From a virus (lineage: Duplodnaviria > Heunggongvirae > Uroviricota > Caudoviricetes): 64,000 nt of DNA. The notes under the pieces are model-generated. The model saw only the letters and a program-made list of their open reading frames with translations, was not told the DNA's origin and made no database searches. The stretch lies in IMG/VR virus record IMGVR_UViG_3300045988_155334. One strand, 5' to 3'. Below are positions 3,339-63,482 of the stretch, in pieces. A program made the translations under genes and the position numbers. How positions within the stretch are numbered: the stretch's first letter is position 1; every line of letters begins with the position of its first letter.

Positions 3339-4768
3339 TCCTCCTCATACGAAATATTGAAGGTGGAGTTTTCTGTATCCAGATAAACGAAATCGTAAAA
3401 GCCGTTGGACTCATACCACTCGACAAACTCCAGATAAAAGTCGCGGAAATAGCCCAGCGTTTCGATAAACGCCCAAACGTCTTTTTTCTTAATCAGGATG
3501 TACTTTCCGACGCGGTTCGGATCAAAGAAAGTTGAGTCGCGCCCAAATTTTTTTTCCAGTGCCGACTTCAGCTCATCGGTCACATTCTCAATGGTCAGGC
3601 TTGCCGATATCCGTCCGGTGATGGTTATCTTAAATGGTAGTTTTCTGACCTCTTTATAAGAGAATTTCTTGTTCAGTTCATTCGGTACCTTCTTAAAGGC
3701 AGCCAGGATCATTTCTTCAAGCTCTGACTGACTTTTATTCGGATGCCATCCTGAAATAAATATCTTATTGATATTCTGAACATTATAAGCACCATCTAAT
3801 TTTTCTTGCTGACCCTCGCCCCATGCCTTTACCCAGGACAGTCCCGGGATGTTACGCACCAGAAAATACGTATAGTCCCCGCCCCATACGACCTGATCAT
3901 CATAGGCAAGGTAATATTGTGCACGGTTACGTGTGATCTCCGTTGTTTCGGCATCGGTACCTGTGGTTATAGGTGTCGTTGTCTTAACTGAAATCAAATT
4001 AGCTAAATTAGCCGCAGAATCGACAGGCGTCAGGTTTTGGCCAGCAACCAGGGTTATATCGCCGTTGGTGCACCATACCTTAAGCGTAATTGTCGAGCCT
4101 TCTGGCGGTATTTGCCCAATTAGCCCATCGCCGAATCGAACTCCCAACTGCTCGGATGGTTTATAAAACTCAACGTAGACCTGGCTTTTACTACCGGCTA
4201 ACCGGAACATAGTGCTGGAAGACCACTGCGTGGTCTTACCATCGGTCGTCACGAATACTTCCAGCTTATAGCAGACAGCAGTGAGAGCCTTTGATAACAC
4301 GACTTCCAGAAATTCTTTGGCTGCCGTAACGGTATATGTCACCTCCTGGATTTCCAACTGTGCCACTTCTACCGTACCGGTGCCGTCAACCAACCTGCAT
4401 ACATCCATAGTCATGTAAGGGTACTGGTCGTCAGATATTAAAGGCGTGTTTTTGGGGATTACCGCTGGAGCATCTTCACTTGTGGCTGTGATCTCAACCA
4501 TCCCGGATGACGGTGTTGGCTTGGTACCAACGTAACTATTCGTTTCTGCCGCTGCCAAGATAGAGGAACGCCGCGTCGCGGTCGATATAAAGCCTTCAGC
4601 CAGCGCCGCATCGGCATACTGAAAGCACCTGTAGACAATCTGGGTAATAAACAATGTCAGCATCGAGACAAATTGAGAGCCGACAAACTTCGACCAGAAT
4701 GAATCTTTCTCGACAAGCTCTTCAAACTCTGCACGAATACTGTCTTTAGTCGGTGTTGTTTTACTCAT
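3335..4768 (-). CDS. Baseplate J-like protein (P1 BplA-like)
   Basis: 477-aa ORF between the gpW-like and gpI-like genes, start overlaps upstream stop. Confidence 0.5.
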   Translation of the reverse strand: MSKTTPTKDSIRAEFEELVEKDSFWSKFVGSQFVSMLTLFITQIVYRCFQYADAALAEGFISTATRRSSILAAAETNSYVGTKPTPSSGMVEITATSEDAPAVIPKNTPLISDDQYPYMTMDVCRLVDGTGTVEVAQLEIQEVTYTVTAAKEFLEVVLSKALTAVCYKLEVFVTTDGKTTQWSSSTMFRLAGSKSQVYVEFYKPSEQLGVRFGDGLIGQIPPEGSTITLKVWCTNGDITLVAGQNLTPVDSAANLANLISVKTTTPITTGTDAETTEITRNRAQYYLAYDDQVVWGGDYTYFLVRNIPGLSWVKAWGEGQQEKLDGAYNVQNINKIFISGWHPNKSQSELEEMILAAFKKVPNELNKKFSYKEVRKLPFKITITGRISASLTIENVTDELKSALEKKFGRDSTFFDPNRVGKYILIKKKDVWAFIETLGYFRDFYLEFVEWYESNGFYDFVYLDTENSTFNISYEEE

Positions 4769-11913: not shown

Positions 11914-12009
11914 TATAACCTCACCTGCCTTATAACTCATTTAGGGTACATATTTTCGCCTTTAAAAAAAAGAGGTTATTAGATCCATTTGTGTGTTTAT
12001 TATACAATT

Positions 12010-15436: not shown

Positions 15437-15732
15437 TAGATTGCTCTAATCTGGAGTCACCTGGCGTTTTCAGTTTGAGGTCGGAGATGCAATCTGATTT
15501 TTTACAGTTAGCGATCGCTTTTGCAGGATATGTTTGTATTGGCTTCTGTGTATACATGATCAGCCGAAAAATGCTTGTCGATATCGACCGCAAAGAACGA
15601 GCAGAGGAGATCTTAGTATGGATTTTCTTTGGCGCGGTCTGGCCATTAGGGATCATGTTTGCTGCAACATTTCTTCTGATGTGGATATTCACCCTTCCAG
15701 GTGATTTCTATAGAAAAAAAGCCAGACATTGA
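15406..15732 (+). CDS. Small two-helix membrane protein (RlfA-like by position)
   Basis: ORF 15406-15732; probable start at an internal Met near 15487; two hydrophobic segments. Confidence 0.35.
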   Translation: MGYTGRIQRVIDCSNLESPGVFSLRSEMQSDFLQLAIAFAGYVCIGFCVYMISRKMLVDIDRKERAEEILVWIFFGAVWPLGIMFAATFLLMWIFTLPGDFYRKKARH

Positions 15733-43706: not shown

Positions 43707-44380
43707 TGGCACCCACAATTTATCACCGTATCGACGGTACCAAATACAGGAATGTCTGGGTTGTTGGTGATCTGCATGGTTGCTACACCAGACTGATGTC
43801 CGAACTCCATCGTGTGGATTTTGACCCGGCGCAGGATTTACTGATATCGGTCGGCGACCTTATCGATCGCGGTACTGAAAATGTCGAATGTCTGGAACTA
43901 TTGCAGATGCCCTGGTTCAGGGCAGTGATGGGGAACCATGAGCGGTTGATGCTCGATGCGTTAAGTCCTGATGGCAACGTGAATAACTGGCTAATGAATG
44001 GTGGACAATGGTTCTTCATGTTGGACACTGATCAGGAAATATTAGCCAGGGCGCTGGTGGAGCTGGTAAGACGTCTGCCCTATATCATTGAGTTGAACAC
44101 CGGGCAAGAAACTATCGTTATAGCCCATGCCGACTATCCGGATAATGAATATCAATTCGGTAAGGAGGTGCCGCTTTTCAACGTTGTCTGGGCACGCGAG
44201 CGTATCAGTGATTCGATGGATGATATTGGTGGCGAAATTTCGGGCGCAGATCGTTTTATCTTTGGTCACACTCCGGTGAAAAGCCCGAAGACATTCTGGA
44301 ATCAGCATTATATCGACACTGGTGCCGTATTTTGCGGAAACCTGACATTGATGAAAGTGAAAGGTGATGGTGCAGCATGA
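43688..44380 (+). CDS. ppp: Ser/Thr protein phosphatase (calcineurin-like metallophosphatase)
   Basis: 230 aa; GDLHGCY, GDLIDRG, GNHE metallophosphatase motifs. Confidence 0.85.
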
Positions 44381-45078
44381 AGATTGCTTTAGTTCTTCGC
44401 TCTGGTGGTGACTATAACGCTTCCGATGTGCAGTGGCTGGTTAATCAACTGCCAAAAGGCTATGAAATTATTTGCCTGACAGACCTGAAGCGTTTACATG
44501 TACCTGGCGTCAAAGTTATCCCATTGATCAACCAGTGGCAAAAGTGCCGTGGCTGGTGGGCGAAAATCGAGTTGTTCCGACCGGATATAACCGATGATCT
44601 GTTCTATCTGGATTTGGACACGGTTATTGCCGGTGATATACGCCCAATCCTTGAGAACCCACCAACCAGTTTCACCATGCTTAGGGATTTTTACCATCCA
44701 CAATATCGTGGTAGCGGTGCCCTGTGGATACCAAATAGTGTAAAAGCGCATATCTGGAGTGCATTCTGGCAAGATCCGGAAGGTTGGATTGCTCGTTGTG
44801 TTACTACTGAATGCTGGGGTGATCAGGGGTTTTTGCGGAAGGTTATGGGTGATGATACACCAGCATTTCAGGATCTGTATCCAGGATGGTTTGTAAGTTA
44901 CAAGGCCGATGTTGTGGAACCTGGTTCAAAATATGCGAGCGCGCGTTACTCCAGGGGGAATGGGACATTACCAAAGGACTGCCGAATAATCTTTTTCCAC
45001 GGCAAACCGCGGCCTCGCGAAGTGTCAGAGGATTGGCTTCCCCTCATTAGCTCGTTTTTTGAGCGAGAATCAGAATAA
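44377..45078 (+). CDS. Putative GT-A-like glycosyltransferase with DxD motif
   Basis: 233 aa; FYLDLDTVI DxD-type motif; start overlaps the ppp stop. Confidence 0.4.
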
Positions 45079-45079
45079 T

Positions 45080-45096
45080 ATTGCTCTAATAATTCC
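45080..45096 (+). promoter_or_regulatory. C1 operator-like site (left copy of an inverted pair)
   Basis: ATTGCTCTAATAATTCC, 14/17 match. Confidence 0.45.
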
Positions 45097-45104
45097 ATAT
45101 TTTT

Positions 45105-45134
45105 AAAACGTGATGTACACTCATCACGTTTTTT
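45105..45134. terminator. Intrinsic terminator bracketed by inverted C1 operator-like sites
   Basis: aaaacgtgatg-tacact-catcacgtttttt. Confidence 0.65.
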
Positions 45135-45145
45135 ATTAGAGCAAT
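45129..45145 (-). promoter_or_regulatory. C1 operator-like site (right, inverted copy)
   Basis: Reverse complement reads ATTGCTCTAATAAAAAA, 14/17 match. Confidence 0.45.
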
Positions 45146-45159
45146 CCATAAGGTGCACT

Positions 45160-45378
45160 ATGTGGCCATTCCGACGGAAATATCACTACTGGCTGATCGC
45201 CTTTGTTACGCCGACCGGCGGTATCAGGCATGTCATCACCAGGTATCGCAACAAGAGACTCACCTTAGCCAGAATTTTACAGGCTGCCATAGGTGAGGGA
45301 CTGGATACAAATTGCGTAGTCCTTCCACCTTCATACTTAGGAAAAATGACCGAAGCACAAGCTAATACGGAACTTTGA
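45160..45378 (+). CDS. Small hypothetical protein
   Basis: 72-aa ORF with AAGGTG ribosome-binding site. Confidence 0.4.
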   Translation: MWPFRRKYHYWLIAFVTPTGGIRHVITRYRNKRLTLARILQAAIGEGLDTNCVVLPPSYLGKMTEAQANTEL

Positions 45379-45379
45379 A

Positions 45380-46642
45380 ATGAGCACTTCAGCACAAAAC
45401 CAATCAATCGAAAATGTATCTATCCCTGATGTCCTGAATGCCGGTATCCCGGCCATTATCCAGAACATCCGGGCCGCGCAACGCCGCGTTAGTTGTGATG
45501 ACCTCACAGCACGTTTTTTTGATAATGCGGTTCAGTCAGCGGAGATGCTTCACGCACAGCTTATTGATGTTTATAACGCAGAAGCTGATAGCCATAACTC
45601 CCTGGTAGATGCAGCTGAAAATATGCAGTTGGATCTCGGTCTGAAGGGTAAAGAAATTGAAGAGCTTCAGCTGCAAATTGAACATTTGAAACGCCAGCAA
45701 CAGGACGCGATCGACGATGCGACGCATGACGCCAACCAGCGTGCTGATAATGCCGAACGTATAAGCATTGAGCTGGAAACAAAACTCAATGAAATGACCG
45801 CGATGGTTGAACTGCGGAACTCACAGATTTCAACGCTAAAATCTCAATATAAAGAGATCATGAAACTTGATCCTTTTAACCTTGAGAAACGCTATAACAA
45901 AGCTAAAAGCGAGCGACAGGAACTGCGTAAGCAGGTCGCCGACCTTAACCAACAGCTCAAAAAAACTATTAAAGATGCAAGCGAGGCGCGCGTGGCATTT
46001 GCTAATAAAAAAGCAGAGGTTACCGCGCTGGTTAATGAGAATGCCAAATTTGCGACGCTCAAGAAGGAAATGTATGGCATTACTGAGCGCCGTTTCCCTG
46101 CAAGCAAACTTCATCCGACGTTAGGGCAAATCTCCTTCTTCCCGCGCCTCCTGGCTTATGGGATCTCATCGCCTAAAGAGTTCAATAACGAGCGTCCTTA
46201 TATCGTTTCTAAGCTGGACTTTGCTTATCAGTTCTGCTGCGACATGGGCTATGCCATTGATATCCGAATCAACGAATGGTTGATGCCAAACTTCCAGCCG
46301 TTGGCAATTTTCCGCGAGTTCCAGCCGGAAGGTTGGGTAGAGTTCTTCCATGAATTGATCTGTAAAGAAATGGAAAGCCGCCGCCCGGAATTGGTCCGTC
46401 GAGTTGAGTGGGCGCAAGAGGTTATGTTGGCAGATGCAGAGCTGCCGTTCGAACCGGAATTCATTGATGATCTGGCAACTAAAGGGTTGCATACCCTGTT
46501 TGATGTGGTTACCCGCCGTCATGAGCAGTTGGTTGTCGAATTGGGTTTAGAGGAAACAGCGGCAAGAAGACTTCTCGATGTTTGCTATGCACGTAGCGAT
46601 GCATGGGAAAAAGAGAACGGCGGCACTATTTACGTTCGCTGA
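45380..46642 (+). CDS. Coiled-coil protein with C-terminal globular domain (PmgS-like by position)
   Basis: 420 aa; long heptad-rich region at residues ~60-230. Confidence 0.45.
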   Translation: MSTSAQNQSIENVSIPDVLNAGIPAIIQNIRAAQRRVSCDDLTARFFDNAVQSAEMLHAQLIDVYNAEADSHNSLVDAAENMQLDLGLKGKEIEELQLQIEHLKRQQQDAIDDATHDANQRADNAERISIELETKLNEMTAMVELRNSQISTLKSQYKEIMKLDPFNLEKRYNKAKSERQELRKQVADLNQQLKKTIKDASEARVAFANKKAEVTALVNENAKFATLKKEMYGITERRFPASKLHPTLGQISFFPRLLAYGISSPKEFNNERPYIVSKLDFAYQFCCDMGYAIDIRINEWLMPNFQPLAIFREFQPEGWVEFFHELICKEMESRRPELVRRVEWAQEVMLADAELPFEPEFIDDLATKGLHTLFDVVTRRHEQLVVELGLEETAARRLLDVCYARSDAWEKENGGTIYVR

Positions 46643-46663: not shown

Positions 46664-46697
46664 TGCTGGTGGAGTGCGTCCCACCAGCATTTTTTTC
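46664..46697 (+). terminator. Intrinsic terminator after the coiled-coil gene
   Basis: gctggtgg-agtgcgtc-ccaccagc followed by TTTTTTT. Confidence 0.7.
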
Positions 46698-46715: not shown

Positions 46716-47222
46716 TTGAGTATTTTCAATAAACACGCACACCAGGAACGTCCGTACATCGTCATAGTAGATATTGATGGGACGATATCAGAGGCAACGG
46801 AAGACAGGCTGCATTTGCTTCCACCACCTGGCAAAGGTGCATTAACAGAGCACTGGAACGAGTTTAACCTTGCCTGTGACACCGATACTCCCATCACTCC
46901 AGTTATTGATATGGTGCGCCAGTTATTTAACGTTTACACGGTCTGGTTTGTAACCGGGCGCTGTGAGATCGCAAGGGATAAAACACGAGCCTGGCTGCGG
47001 AAGTACGTAACAAACGGGGCTGAGCCTTTGCTATCTATGCGTCCTGCCACCGATGACAGAAATGACGGCCCAGCAAAGATTGATCTCCTTAAGAAAATTG
47101 GTCTAAGTAAAATCGCGTTCGCGCTGGAAGATAAGATTGAAGTGGCGCGTGTTTTCAGAAGTCACGGTGTACTTACGTTAATGGTCAGGGAGTATGAAAA
47201 CGCGCTTCTTCATCAACAATAA
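46716..47222 (+). CDS. HAD-superfamily phosphatase-like protein
   Basis: 168 aa; motif I VDIDGTI; fold resembles polynucleotide 3'-phosphatase or nucleotidase. Confidence 0.55.
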   Translation: MSIFNKHAHQERPYIVIVDIDGTISEATEDRLHLLPPPGKGALTEHWNEFNLACDTDTPITPVIDMVRQLFNVYTVWFVTGRCEIARDKTRAWLRKYVTNGAEPLLSMRPATDDRNDGPAKIDLLKKIGLSKIAFALEDKIEVARVFRSHGVLTLMVREYENALLHQQ

Positions 47223-47238
47223 TTGCTCTAATAAATCT
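47222..47238 (+). promoter_or_regulatory. C1 operator overlapping the promoter of the rightward accessory operon
   Basis: ATTGCTCTAATAAATCT, 16/17 match. Confidence 0.6.
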
Positions 47239-47320
47239 TGATTTTTAAAACAGAGAAAGTGAAAATAAAAACATGCCGCAAGGCGCGGCATGTATCCAAT
47301 CAATCACAGGAGCTGAAAAT

Positions 47321-59302: not shown

Positions 59303-59319
59303 AATTGCTCTAATGTGTT
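59303..59319 (+). promoter_or_regulatory. Weak C1 operator-like site upstream of lpa
   Basis: ATTGCTCTAATGTGTTG, 11-12/17 match. Confidence 0.3.
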
Positions 59320-62630: not shown

Positions 62631-63482
62631 CTATTGCGCGCTTTCGGGGTTGTCGTTTACTGGCTGCCCCTTCTTAGTTTTACGGCTGCGCGTAACTGAT
62701 GCGGCTGATTTGACCTTTTTCTCTTCGCGAGTGATGGCAATTTGTTTTTTTACATTTTCAATATCTGCCAGGCGATATATTTTTGCCTGCGGCCAGCGGT
62801 CGCAGATGATCGGTTCTATAGAGTCATAAAGGCTAAATTTTGCTTTCTCGAATTCACCGTTGATGATGATTCCATCACGGAGAGTTTCATCGCAGATAAA
62901 CACACCACACAGCGGCACATGGTAACTAACTGATTTACCATCATTGTAGTTAGGGCTACTGGAAATGTAATGGACGCGCAGCATTGTTTCGCTAAAGCCG
63001 TGTACACGCATACGGAATTTTTCATCCTCCGGGTACTGCTTCATTAGCTCTTTTGTTGCTTCCAGGTTCTCTATGTATTTCGCACTGTGCTCATTGATCC
63101 CCGCGCTTTTCTGGATGCGAATGTCCTTATCAATCAGATGAATAATGCGGCCAGCGGTCATGTTGACGCTGTTCACAGCTTCTGTCTGATAAGTTGTAAC
63201 CTTACGCACACCGCGAAGGATGTTAGGCACTGGATATAAAATAGTCTTTGGGATATTGAGGTCTGGGTACTGTTCCAGTTCCCGCGCCATTAAAGTCCAT
63301 TTATCAATTTCAGCCTGAATGCTGTCCGTTTCTTTGAACGGCAGAACGACAACCGGGCGTACAGGACGACCGTCGCTGGCGGCATCAACGTGTTGGGCGC
63401 GTGCAACAGCTTTTTTTAGAAAGAGATCCCTGAAGCTGACGAACTCCTGGTACAGTTGTTCGCCGTAGACATAATTTATCAT
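62631..63482 (-). CDS. c1: C1 repressor of lysogeny
   Basis: 283 aa; size, position next to coi and the operator network match P1 C1. Confidence 0.85.
   Translation of the reverse strand: MINYVYGEQLYQEFVSFRDLFLKKAVARAQHVDAASDGRPVRPVVVLPFKETDSIQAEIDKWTLMARELEQYPDLNIPKTILYPVPNILRGVRKVTTYQTEAVNSVNMTAGRIIHLIDKDIRIQKSAGINEHSAKYIENLEATKELMKQYPEDEKFRMRVHGFSETMLRVHYISSSPNYNDGKSVSYHVPLCGVFICDETLRDGIIINGEFEKAKFSLYDSIEPIICDRWPQAKIYRLADIENVKKQIAITREEKKVKSAASVTRSRKTKKGQPVNDNPESAQ

Follow-up and report, generated by a model that had tools for sequence, protein, structure and literature searches.

A putative terminator hairpin nested between the two C1 operators of the pmgR-pmgS promoter in a P1-type phage-plasmid

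A stretch of 66 bp located directly past pmgQ in a P1-type phage-plasmid probably works as a compact operon boundary, in which the terminator of the pmgN-pmgQ operon is nested in the C1-repressed promoter of pmgR and pmgS, the latter equipped with two operators. The stretch spans positions 45080-45145 of the window, a term used here for the whole 64,000-nucleotide DNA analysed (IMG/VR virus record IMGVR_UViG_3300045988_155334). In the lysogen, C1, aided by the co-repressor Lxc, would sit on each of two inverted operators, Op-a and Op-b. With Op-a covering the -35 of the pmgRS promoter, and Op-b the start or the early transcribed region, the two would jointly shut off pmgRS and also block RNA polymerase coming from upstream. 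The sigma-70 promoter plausibly responsible for the early expression of pmgRS would lie between the operators, either as TTGCTC-17-TAAAAC or as a candidate with its -10 in the loop of the hairpin, and hairpin and U-tract would act as a + strand intrinsic terminator for transcripts arriving from pmgQ. Transcripts of pmgRS would begin either within the hairpin loop or at the 3' foot of the stem, carry no 5' arm, and hence not be terminated. Three parts of this scheme are inferred: that C1 occupies each site, that transcripts terminate here in vivo, and where transcription starts. The features involved are the following.

44377-45078, + strand: pmgQ, last gene of the upstream operon (the stop codon ends at 45078, Op-a starts at 45080)
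45080-45096, + strand: operator Op-a, ATTGCTCTAATAATTCC, corresponding to P1 OpmgRa (former Op86a) and P7 Op(sht a), identified by its annotated counterpart and by the match to the consensus
45081-45109, + strand: PpmgR, a predicted sigma-70 promoter of the P1 annotation, with -35 TTGCTC at 45081-45086, a 17-nt spacer and -10 TAAAAC at 45104-45109
45093-45121, + strand: alternative promoter candidate from a PWM scan, with -35 TTCCAT at 45093-45098 (3' end of Op-a), a 17-nt spacer and -10 TACACT at 45116-45121 (hairpin loop)
45105-45132, + strand: hairpin AAAACGTGATG-TACACT-CATCACGTTTT, probable terminator of the pmgN-pmgQ (ppp) operon, as indicated by fold, covariation and position
45129-45137, + strand: U-tract TTTTTTATT, directly 3' of the stem core, invariant in all variants found
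45129-45145, - strand: operator Op-b, ATTGCTCTAATAAAAAA (letters of the - strand), corresponding to P1 OpmgRb (former Op86b), annotated in P1 and P7
45160-46642, + strand: pmgR (45160-45378) and pmgS (45380-46642), the genes controlled by the cassette
46664-46696, + strand: terminator after pmgS, TGCTGGTGG-AGTGCGTC-CCACCAGCA followed by a T7 run, with the hairpin at 46664-46689 (-16.1 kcal/mol)
62634-63482, - strand: c1, gene of the cognate repressor, located by tblastn with P1 C1

The operator pair and its surroundings

As judged by its sequence, the segment 45080-45145 is the catalogued P1 operator pair Op86a/b, or OpmgRa/b, together with PpmgR, and as such is already known. The window is that of a P1-family (Punavirus) phage-plasmid. 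The region 44300-46000 is matched at ~98-99 % by P1, P7, RCS47, SJ46 and others, and the 66 bp of the cassette show zero differences, base for base, from both P1 and P7. The P1 record (GenBank AF234172) reports a 'monovalent C1-controlled operator OpmgRa', former Op86a, controlling pmgR and pmgS, places OpmgRb (former Op86b) on the opposite strand, and has the predicted sigma-70 promoter PpmgR at the same spot; the same two sites are annotated as Op(sht a) and Op(sht b) in the P7 record (AF503408). The likeness to these entries concerns sequence, the flanking genes pmgQ and pmgR-pmgS, orientation and spacing. The P1 and P7 records have listed operators and promoter at this spot for years. The element being identical, the records differ from the present reading in two respects: the hairpin carries no terminator annotation in either (operators are listed in both, the promoter in P1), and the -10 is put at TAAAAC, not in the loop. 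The first-pass annotation of this DNA had overlooked the pmgR-pmgS promoter annotated at the same spot. A search of the literature for Op86, OpmgR or related names retrieved no relevant paper. The repressor encoded in the window is 99.6 % identical to P1 C1 over 283 aa (tblastn), and the C1 operators of P1 number 22, their asymmetric consensus being ATTGCTCTAATAAATTT (PMC8546580).

The two operators share a perfect 13-nt inverted repeat, ATTGCTCTAATAA, found at 45080-45092 on the + strand and as its reverse complement at 45133-45145, with 40 nt in between. An inverted pair of C1 operator-like sites had been proposed in the first-pass annotation with exact coordinates, and the sites coincide with OpmgRa/b and Op(sht a/b) in a window that itself encodes C1. 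The description of the second site as the inverted counterpart of the first stands for the 13-nt core, which is perfect, and fails for the full 17-mers, which agree over 13/17 nt only, and end in TTCC (Op-a) and AAAA (Op-b). The consensus is matched by each of the two 17-mers at 14 of 17 positions. At positions 15-17, where the other good operators of the window are T-rich, Op-b alone has AAA. The 3' end of Op-b consists of the same bases as the + strand U-tract of the hairpin; the deviation from the operator consensus at positions 15-17 thus yields the U-tract, and is retained in all lineages.

With up to 2 mismatches allowed, the window contains 14 copies of the 13-mer where 1.85 are expected, and none of 100 shuffles reaches 14 (0/100). 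Five copies are perfect, operator-like sites are enriched ~7-fold in the window, and a chance origin of the 13-mer repeat is excluded. Among the weaker matches, those at 11976-11988 (-), 15440-15452 (+), 35581-35593 (-) and 59304-59316 (+) have 2 mismatches in the core and 4-6 relative to the full 17-mer, and may be degenerate operators or chance occurrences.

The centres of Op-a and Op-b are 49 bp apart (~4.7 helical turns), and 32 bp lie between the sites. This spacing rules out a bivalent C1 operator, which is made of two overlapping inverted 17-bp sites covering ~28 bp. Bivalent operators, such as Oc1ab (Op99ab) and the Op72-like pair at 31399-31426 of the window, share with the Op86 pair inverted 17-bp sites with A/T-rich 3' ends facing each other, but overlap by ~6 bp (28 bp in total), whereas the Op86 sites are kept apart by a hairpin and a promoter core. 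The pair at 31399-31426 consists of overlapping inverted copies, ATTGCTCTAATAAATTT and ATTACACTAATAAATTT; as a bivalent, Op72-type operator it contrasts with the separated Op86 pair. The simplest job of Op-a and Op-b would be ordinary promoter repression, with C1 predicted to occupy both.

The genes around the cassette all lie on the + strand and form a chain of C1-controlled units. According to the P1 annotation, pmgL and pmgM (+ strand) are driven by LPpmgL and P1/P2pmgL, with Op82, and pmgN, pmgO, pmgP, ppp and pmgQ (+ strand) by PpmgN, with Op83. The pmgN-pmgQ unit ends, and pmgR-pmgS begins, at the cassette, which fits the operon boundary that had been placed here in the first-pass annotation. 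pmgR starts 14 nt past Op-b, with an AAGG ribosome-binding site ahead. pmgS is followed by pap, and then by Op88, which precedes pmgT and later genes. The terminator after pmgS, located 22 nt past the pmgS stop codon, is the best candidate in the window. With the cassette hairpin upstream and this canonical terminator downstream, pmgR-pmgS are bracketed by two hairpins.

The architecture is shared by diverged relatives. A tblastn search with PmgS led to two lineages at ~69 % identity, picked without use of the operator sequence, the Salmonella Newport plasmid pCVMN1543 and the Cronobacter phage JK004, which encodes a C1 homologue (76 %). In both, Op-a, the hairpin and the inverted Op-b directly follow the pmgQ homologue, and the 66-bp outer span is unchanged. 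A pattern scan of viral contigs, in which the 40-nt gap was required, identified an additional lineage (L059) besides numerous P1-type copies; the total, loci fetched earlier included, is 126 loci in 23 distinct variants. Metagenomes were scanned allowing gaps of 30-50 nt, and the gap measured 40 nt in 50 of the 51 loci found, and 41 nt in one. The 41-nt copy (L236, contig OBXU01000059.1, ~3643-3707) has an added T in the U-tract.

PmgS differs by 24-31 % among the four lineages. Between P1 and the Salmonella lineage, 1 of the 26 operator-core positions is changed, versus 13 of the 36 interior ones (P ~1e-4), and the comparison of P1 with all three diverged lineages gives 0-1/26 changes in the cores versus 11-14/36 in the interior. 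Indels occur in the flanks, and none is found inside the cassette. The core of Op-a is unchanged in the lineages at ~69 % PmgS identity, and Op-b is kept in all four lineages, position 1 excepted. The different divergence of cores and interior indicates that both operators are under purifying selection. Since pCVMN1543 and JK004 were found by protein homology, the conservation of the operators is no artefact of retrieval. Genome contigs searched with PmgS contained two near-identical loci only, and in viral contigs searched with the PmgS alignment all of the best 80 matches were P1-type. Upstream of a distant PmgS homologue (~20 % identity) in Citrobacter pCfr13-1 there is a terminator of the ordinary kind but no inverted pair of operators, and the locus thus has no bearing on the architecture of the cassette.

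The hairpin between the operators

Inside the operator pair lies a perfect 11-bp inverted repeat, with arms at 45105-45115 and 45122-45132 separated by the 6-nt loop TACACT, and followed by TT ATT. The G+C-containing core of the stem (45109-45128) has 7 bp, 4 of which are G-C pairs, and a stability of -8.5 kcal/mol. For the complete hairpin the folding energy is -13.4 kcal/mol whichever strand is folded (z = -5.2 and -4.8), and none of the shuffled sequences (0/200) folds as well. It starts 27 nt past the stop codon of pmgQ, in a region where neighbouring genes are all on the + strand. Hairpin and U-tract together have all the sequence traits expected of a + strand intrinsic terminator, namely a G+C stem, a U-tract, a co-directional gene end and covariation. 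A standard terminator scan of the window did not flag the hairpin, probably because four A-U pairs draw part of the U-tract into the stem. In our own scan the 7-bp core followed by TTTTTTAT is the 18th line (duplicate entries included) of the 120 ranked terminator candidates in the window. A search of 44800-45500 against Rfam, with E values up to 1 admitted, found no family. On the - strand side the hairpin is followed by TTTT and then by A's only; this T-run, short in P1, is missing from JK004. The control of antisense transcription that had been surmised in the first-pass annotation has no support: a PWM scan of four lineages found no conserved promoter candidate on the - strand, the T-run on that strand is both short and unconserved, and the neighbouring genes all point the other way.

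The stem core reads CGTGATG/CATCACG in P1 and CATGGTG/CACCATG in other lineages. Two stem pairs are thus fully compensated between lineages, one changing from G-C to A-U, the other from A-U to G-C. In JK004 the arm CGCCATG gives rise to a U.G pair, valid only in + strand RNA. Over 24 distinct sequences, 97.3 % of the hairpin cells are paired, versus 39-54 % when the partners are slid, and two pairs are changed on both sides. Several of the single-sequence variants break a stem pair, for 7 unpaired cells. The two swaps are common to the three non-P1 lineages, and probably reflect one event each. Being compensatory, they suggest that the pairing of the stem is under selection. Single-base transitions in the variants preserve pairing on the + strand in ~10 cases and on the - strand in 4, a difference which is not significant (own count, ~180 P1-type copies); as a sign of RNA pairing on the + strand this bias is only suggestive.

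Symmetric changes in a palindrome could instead reflect the binding of a dimeric protein to DNA, and not RNA pairing. That the repeat matters as a DNA-level palindrome, either as the site of such a protein or as a cruciform extruded to bring the operators together, is the least probable of the readings considered, and very improbable in itself. The symmetric double changes do preserve the palindrome, and the whole 66 bp form a nested one. Yet JK004 and several variants lose the symmetry of the DNA and keep G.U pairing in + strand RNA, an 11-bp A+T-rich stem would make a poor cruciform, and nothing in the repeat resembles the annotated late-promoter element. A late-promoter element was also considered on its own account, and rejected as the hairpin segment is unlike the annotated LPpmgL/LP26.

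On the comparison of the lineages, it is concluded that the hairpin is likely selected as a + strand RNA structure, and termination of transcripts leaving pmgQ, the simplest function, is probably its role. The perfect terminator hairpin of the first-pass annotation is in line with the perfect 11-bp stem, with the full set of + strand terminator features and with the two compensatory changes in relatives. A different opinion is that the cassette does nothing but repress PpmgR through a double operator, the inner palindrome having neither terminator nor RNA role. This accords with the P1 and P7 records, which list operators (P1 also the promoter) and no terminator, with the negative outcome of the standard scan, and with the singleton variants in which stem pairs are broken. 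Such plain repression is however unlikely, as pairing survives two compensatory swaps while 13/36 interior positions have diverged, the U-tract directly after the stem is invariant, and a location just past a stop codon is typical of terminators. Moreover, even the textbook terminator after pmgS is unannotated in the P1 record, so that the silence of the latter on the cassette hairpin has no weight.

Generic intrinsic terminators at the ends of enterobacterial phage operons share with the putative pmgN-pmgQ terminator a G+C stem-loop followed by a U-tract, the location just past a stop codon, and covariation. In the cassette, differently from these, the U-tract at the same time belongs to a repressor site, and the next promoter is interleaved with the stem-loop. 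In a read-through RNA (45060-45160, + strand) the operator arms can also pair, lengthening the hairpin into an interrupted helix of 24 bp (-26.9 kcal/mol) that bulges by 12 nt on the 5' side. That this helix may be a processing site is pure speculation.

Promoter candidates and early expression of pmgR-pmgS

PpmgR has its -35 inside OpmgRa, and its predicted start, at ~45116, falls in the hairpin loop. The candidate with the -10 in the loop has its predicted start at ~45128, at the edge of Op-b. Either candidate would start transcription in the hairpin or at its 3' foot, and pmgRS transcripts lacking the 5' arm would escape termination. Both candidates are weak by consensus (4-9 bits). By a simple PWM, the bit scores of TTGCTC-17-TAAAAC across the four lineages are 4.0, 2.5, -3.4 and 4.0 (4.0 in P1, -3.4 in JK004). 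The loop candidate, which has the top + strand score in all four, reaches 5.2, 7.4, 9.2 and 7.4 bits by the same measure. The loop is TACACT in P1 and TATCAT in the three other lineages (24-28 % PmgS difference), and conforms to TAnnnT in every lineage. A mere terminator loop would not need this degree of conservation, and the -10 annotated for PpmgR may be misplaced. The occurrence of TTGCTC-17-TAAAAC in the same register also at Op88 / P2pmgT favours the annotated promoter. In searchable sources no transcript 5' or 3' ends at the cassette, nor a mapping of P1 transcription starts, were found.

The P1 region Op88 / OpmgT (P2pmgT, P1pmgT; 47222-47266 in the window) resembles the cassette in that a monovalent C1 operator is located directly past a stop codon, and includes TTGCTC-17-TAAAAC. 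A second predicted promoter, with the -35 at the 3' end of the operator, is analogous to the loop candidate at Op86. Op88 differs because the operator is single, and there is no + strand hairpin before the gene, the downstream hairpin being a - strand terminator. A run of T4-5 followed by TAA/TAT is found at operator positions 20-27, in fixed register, in 5 of the 8 good C1 operators (12010, 13675, 27877, 45080 and 47222). The shared register could correspond to a weak -10, to an extended operator or Lxc contact, or to the common ancestry of the modules.

Published RNA-seq data on P1vir (Table S1, log fold change at 10 and 30 min, in wild-type and dksA hosts; PMC8201110) set the kinetics of pmgR and pmgS apart from those of the upstream genes. 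The values in the wild-type host (PMC8201110) are as follows.

pmgL to pmgQ: 5.4-8.0 at 10 min, 9.6-12.0 at 30 min, change +4.0 to +4.6
pmgQ: 7.05 at 10 min, 11.66 at 30 min, change +4.6
pmgR: 9.02 at 10 min, 10.81 at 30 min, change +1.8
pmgS: 9.99 at 10 min, 11.70 at 30 min, change +1.7

In the dksA host the same step is +5.0 for pmgQ, +1.45 for pmgR and +1.5 for pmgS (PMC8201110). The change over time within a gene is independent of gene length, and kinetics therefore shift exactly at the cassette between pmgQ and pmgR. This step supports the presence of an independent early promoter at this point. The kinetics of pmgRS are like those of other early C1-controlled genes, as an example ref and dmt (PMC8201110 data). 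By 30 min the levels of pmgR and pmgS are close to that of pmgQ, in a table which is possibly not length-normalised (PMC8201110); levels of this kind make the RNA-seq compatible with partial termination, of which it is neither proof nor exclusion. At 10 min of P1vir infection the transcripts of pmgR, pmgS, pmgT and pmgU rank near the top for the phage (9-10), with true late genes at 3-5 (PMC8201110; P1 78602-85916). The 'putative morphogenetic' units pmgR/S/T/U are expressed early.

These data also bear on the idea that pmgRS transcription starts upstream of the hairpin, for instance from a -10 located inside Op-a, and that the hairpin attenuates its own leader. A -10 of sequence AATAAT is found inside Op-a, with a start near position 21 of the cassette, and scores 5.6 and 6.6 bits in two lineages. 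Attenuation has a precedent proposed for the P1 ref gene by Windle et al. The AATAAT candidate is however not conserved, and is absent from the P1 top list; the ranking of pmgR and pmgS among the highest phage transcripts at 10 min speaks against a strong block in the leader (PMC8201110), and no alternative anti-terminator pairing is evident on folding. An attenuator is for these reasons a very doubtful option.

An extended version of the favoured scheme, the nested terminator and promoter under two operators, would have four functions in one element. The terminator loop would be the -10 of the next promoter, the U-tract the tail of an operator, and C1 both the repressor of the promoter and a roadblock on the terminator. 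This is a tentative proposal, which we would not expect to hold in full. If true, the element would halt all transcription in the lysogen, and in lytic growth would stop the upstream operon and start the downstream one, and what is new would be the -10 in the terminator loop, along with any direct effect of C1 on termination.

Possible contacts between the operators, and value of the cassette

In the first-pass annotation C1 bound at both sites was thought able to loop the DNA, or to modulate termination. According to this view, C1 on the inverted sites would loop or bridge the DNA, or C1 on Op-b would tune termination, and the read-through from pmgQ into pmgRS would be set by the level of the repressor. 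Two conserved sites at a strictly conserved distance, and the position of Op-b exactly on the U-tract, may be quoted in support, and C1-mediated looping reportedly occurs at the Op99 sites upstream of c1. Yet the distance between the centres, 49 bp, with 32 bp between the sites, is shorter than that of well-documented repressor loops, and the fixed spacing is already explained by promoter spacer, hairpin and U-tract sharing bases. As to tuning, upstream promoters have their own operators (Op82, Op83), so that in the lysogen little transcription would arrive to be modulated, and polymerase coming from upstream would meet C1 on Op-a first. Taken as a whole, control of read-through by the repressor level is improbable: looping between Op-a and Op-b is unlikely, and a C1-dependent tuning of termination possible. 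The control region of c1/coi (Oc1a-e, or Op99a-e) is similar in having several monovalent C1 sites on one transcription unit, but there the sites are ~170-560 bp apart, and looping is physically easy, in contrast to the Op86 centres. P1 RepA, and not C1, was assayed in the loopometer paper.

The cassette has little general significance, and a modest value for the annotation or engineering of P1-type phage-plasmids. pmgR-pmgS come out as a self-contained, early-expressed unit set between two terminators, the upstream one putative. pmgR has been reported as essential for the production of infectious particles, and both the start of its transcript and its insulation from the upstream operon matter when deletions or insertions in the region are designed. 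What is added to the catalogued element is small: a conserved, covarying hairpin nested in the Op86 pair, and perhaps a -10 in the loop of that hairpin.

A further hairpin is found on the - strand at 47272-47292, just downstream of Op88 (47222-47238) and right past the predicted -10 of P1pmgT. It is terminator-like, with CATGCCGCGCCTTGCGGCATG followed by TTTTTATT and a stability of -13.6 kcal/mol, and would either stop leftward transcription from pmgT, or form the 5' end of the pmgT mRNA.
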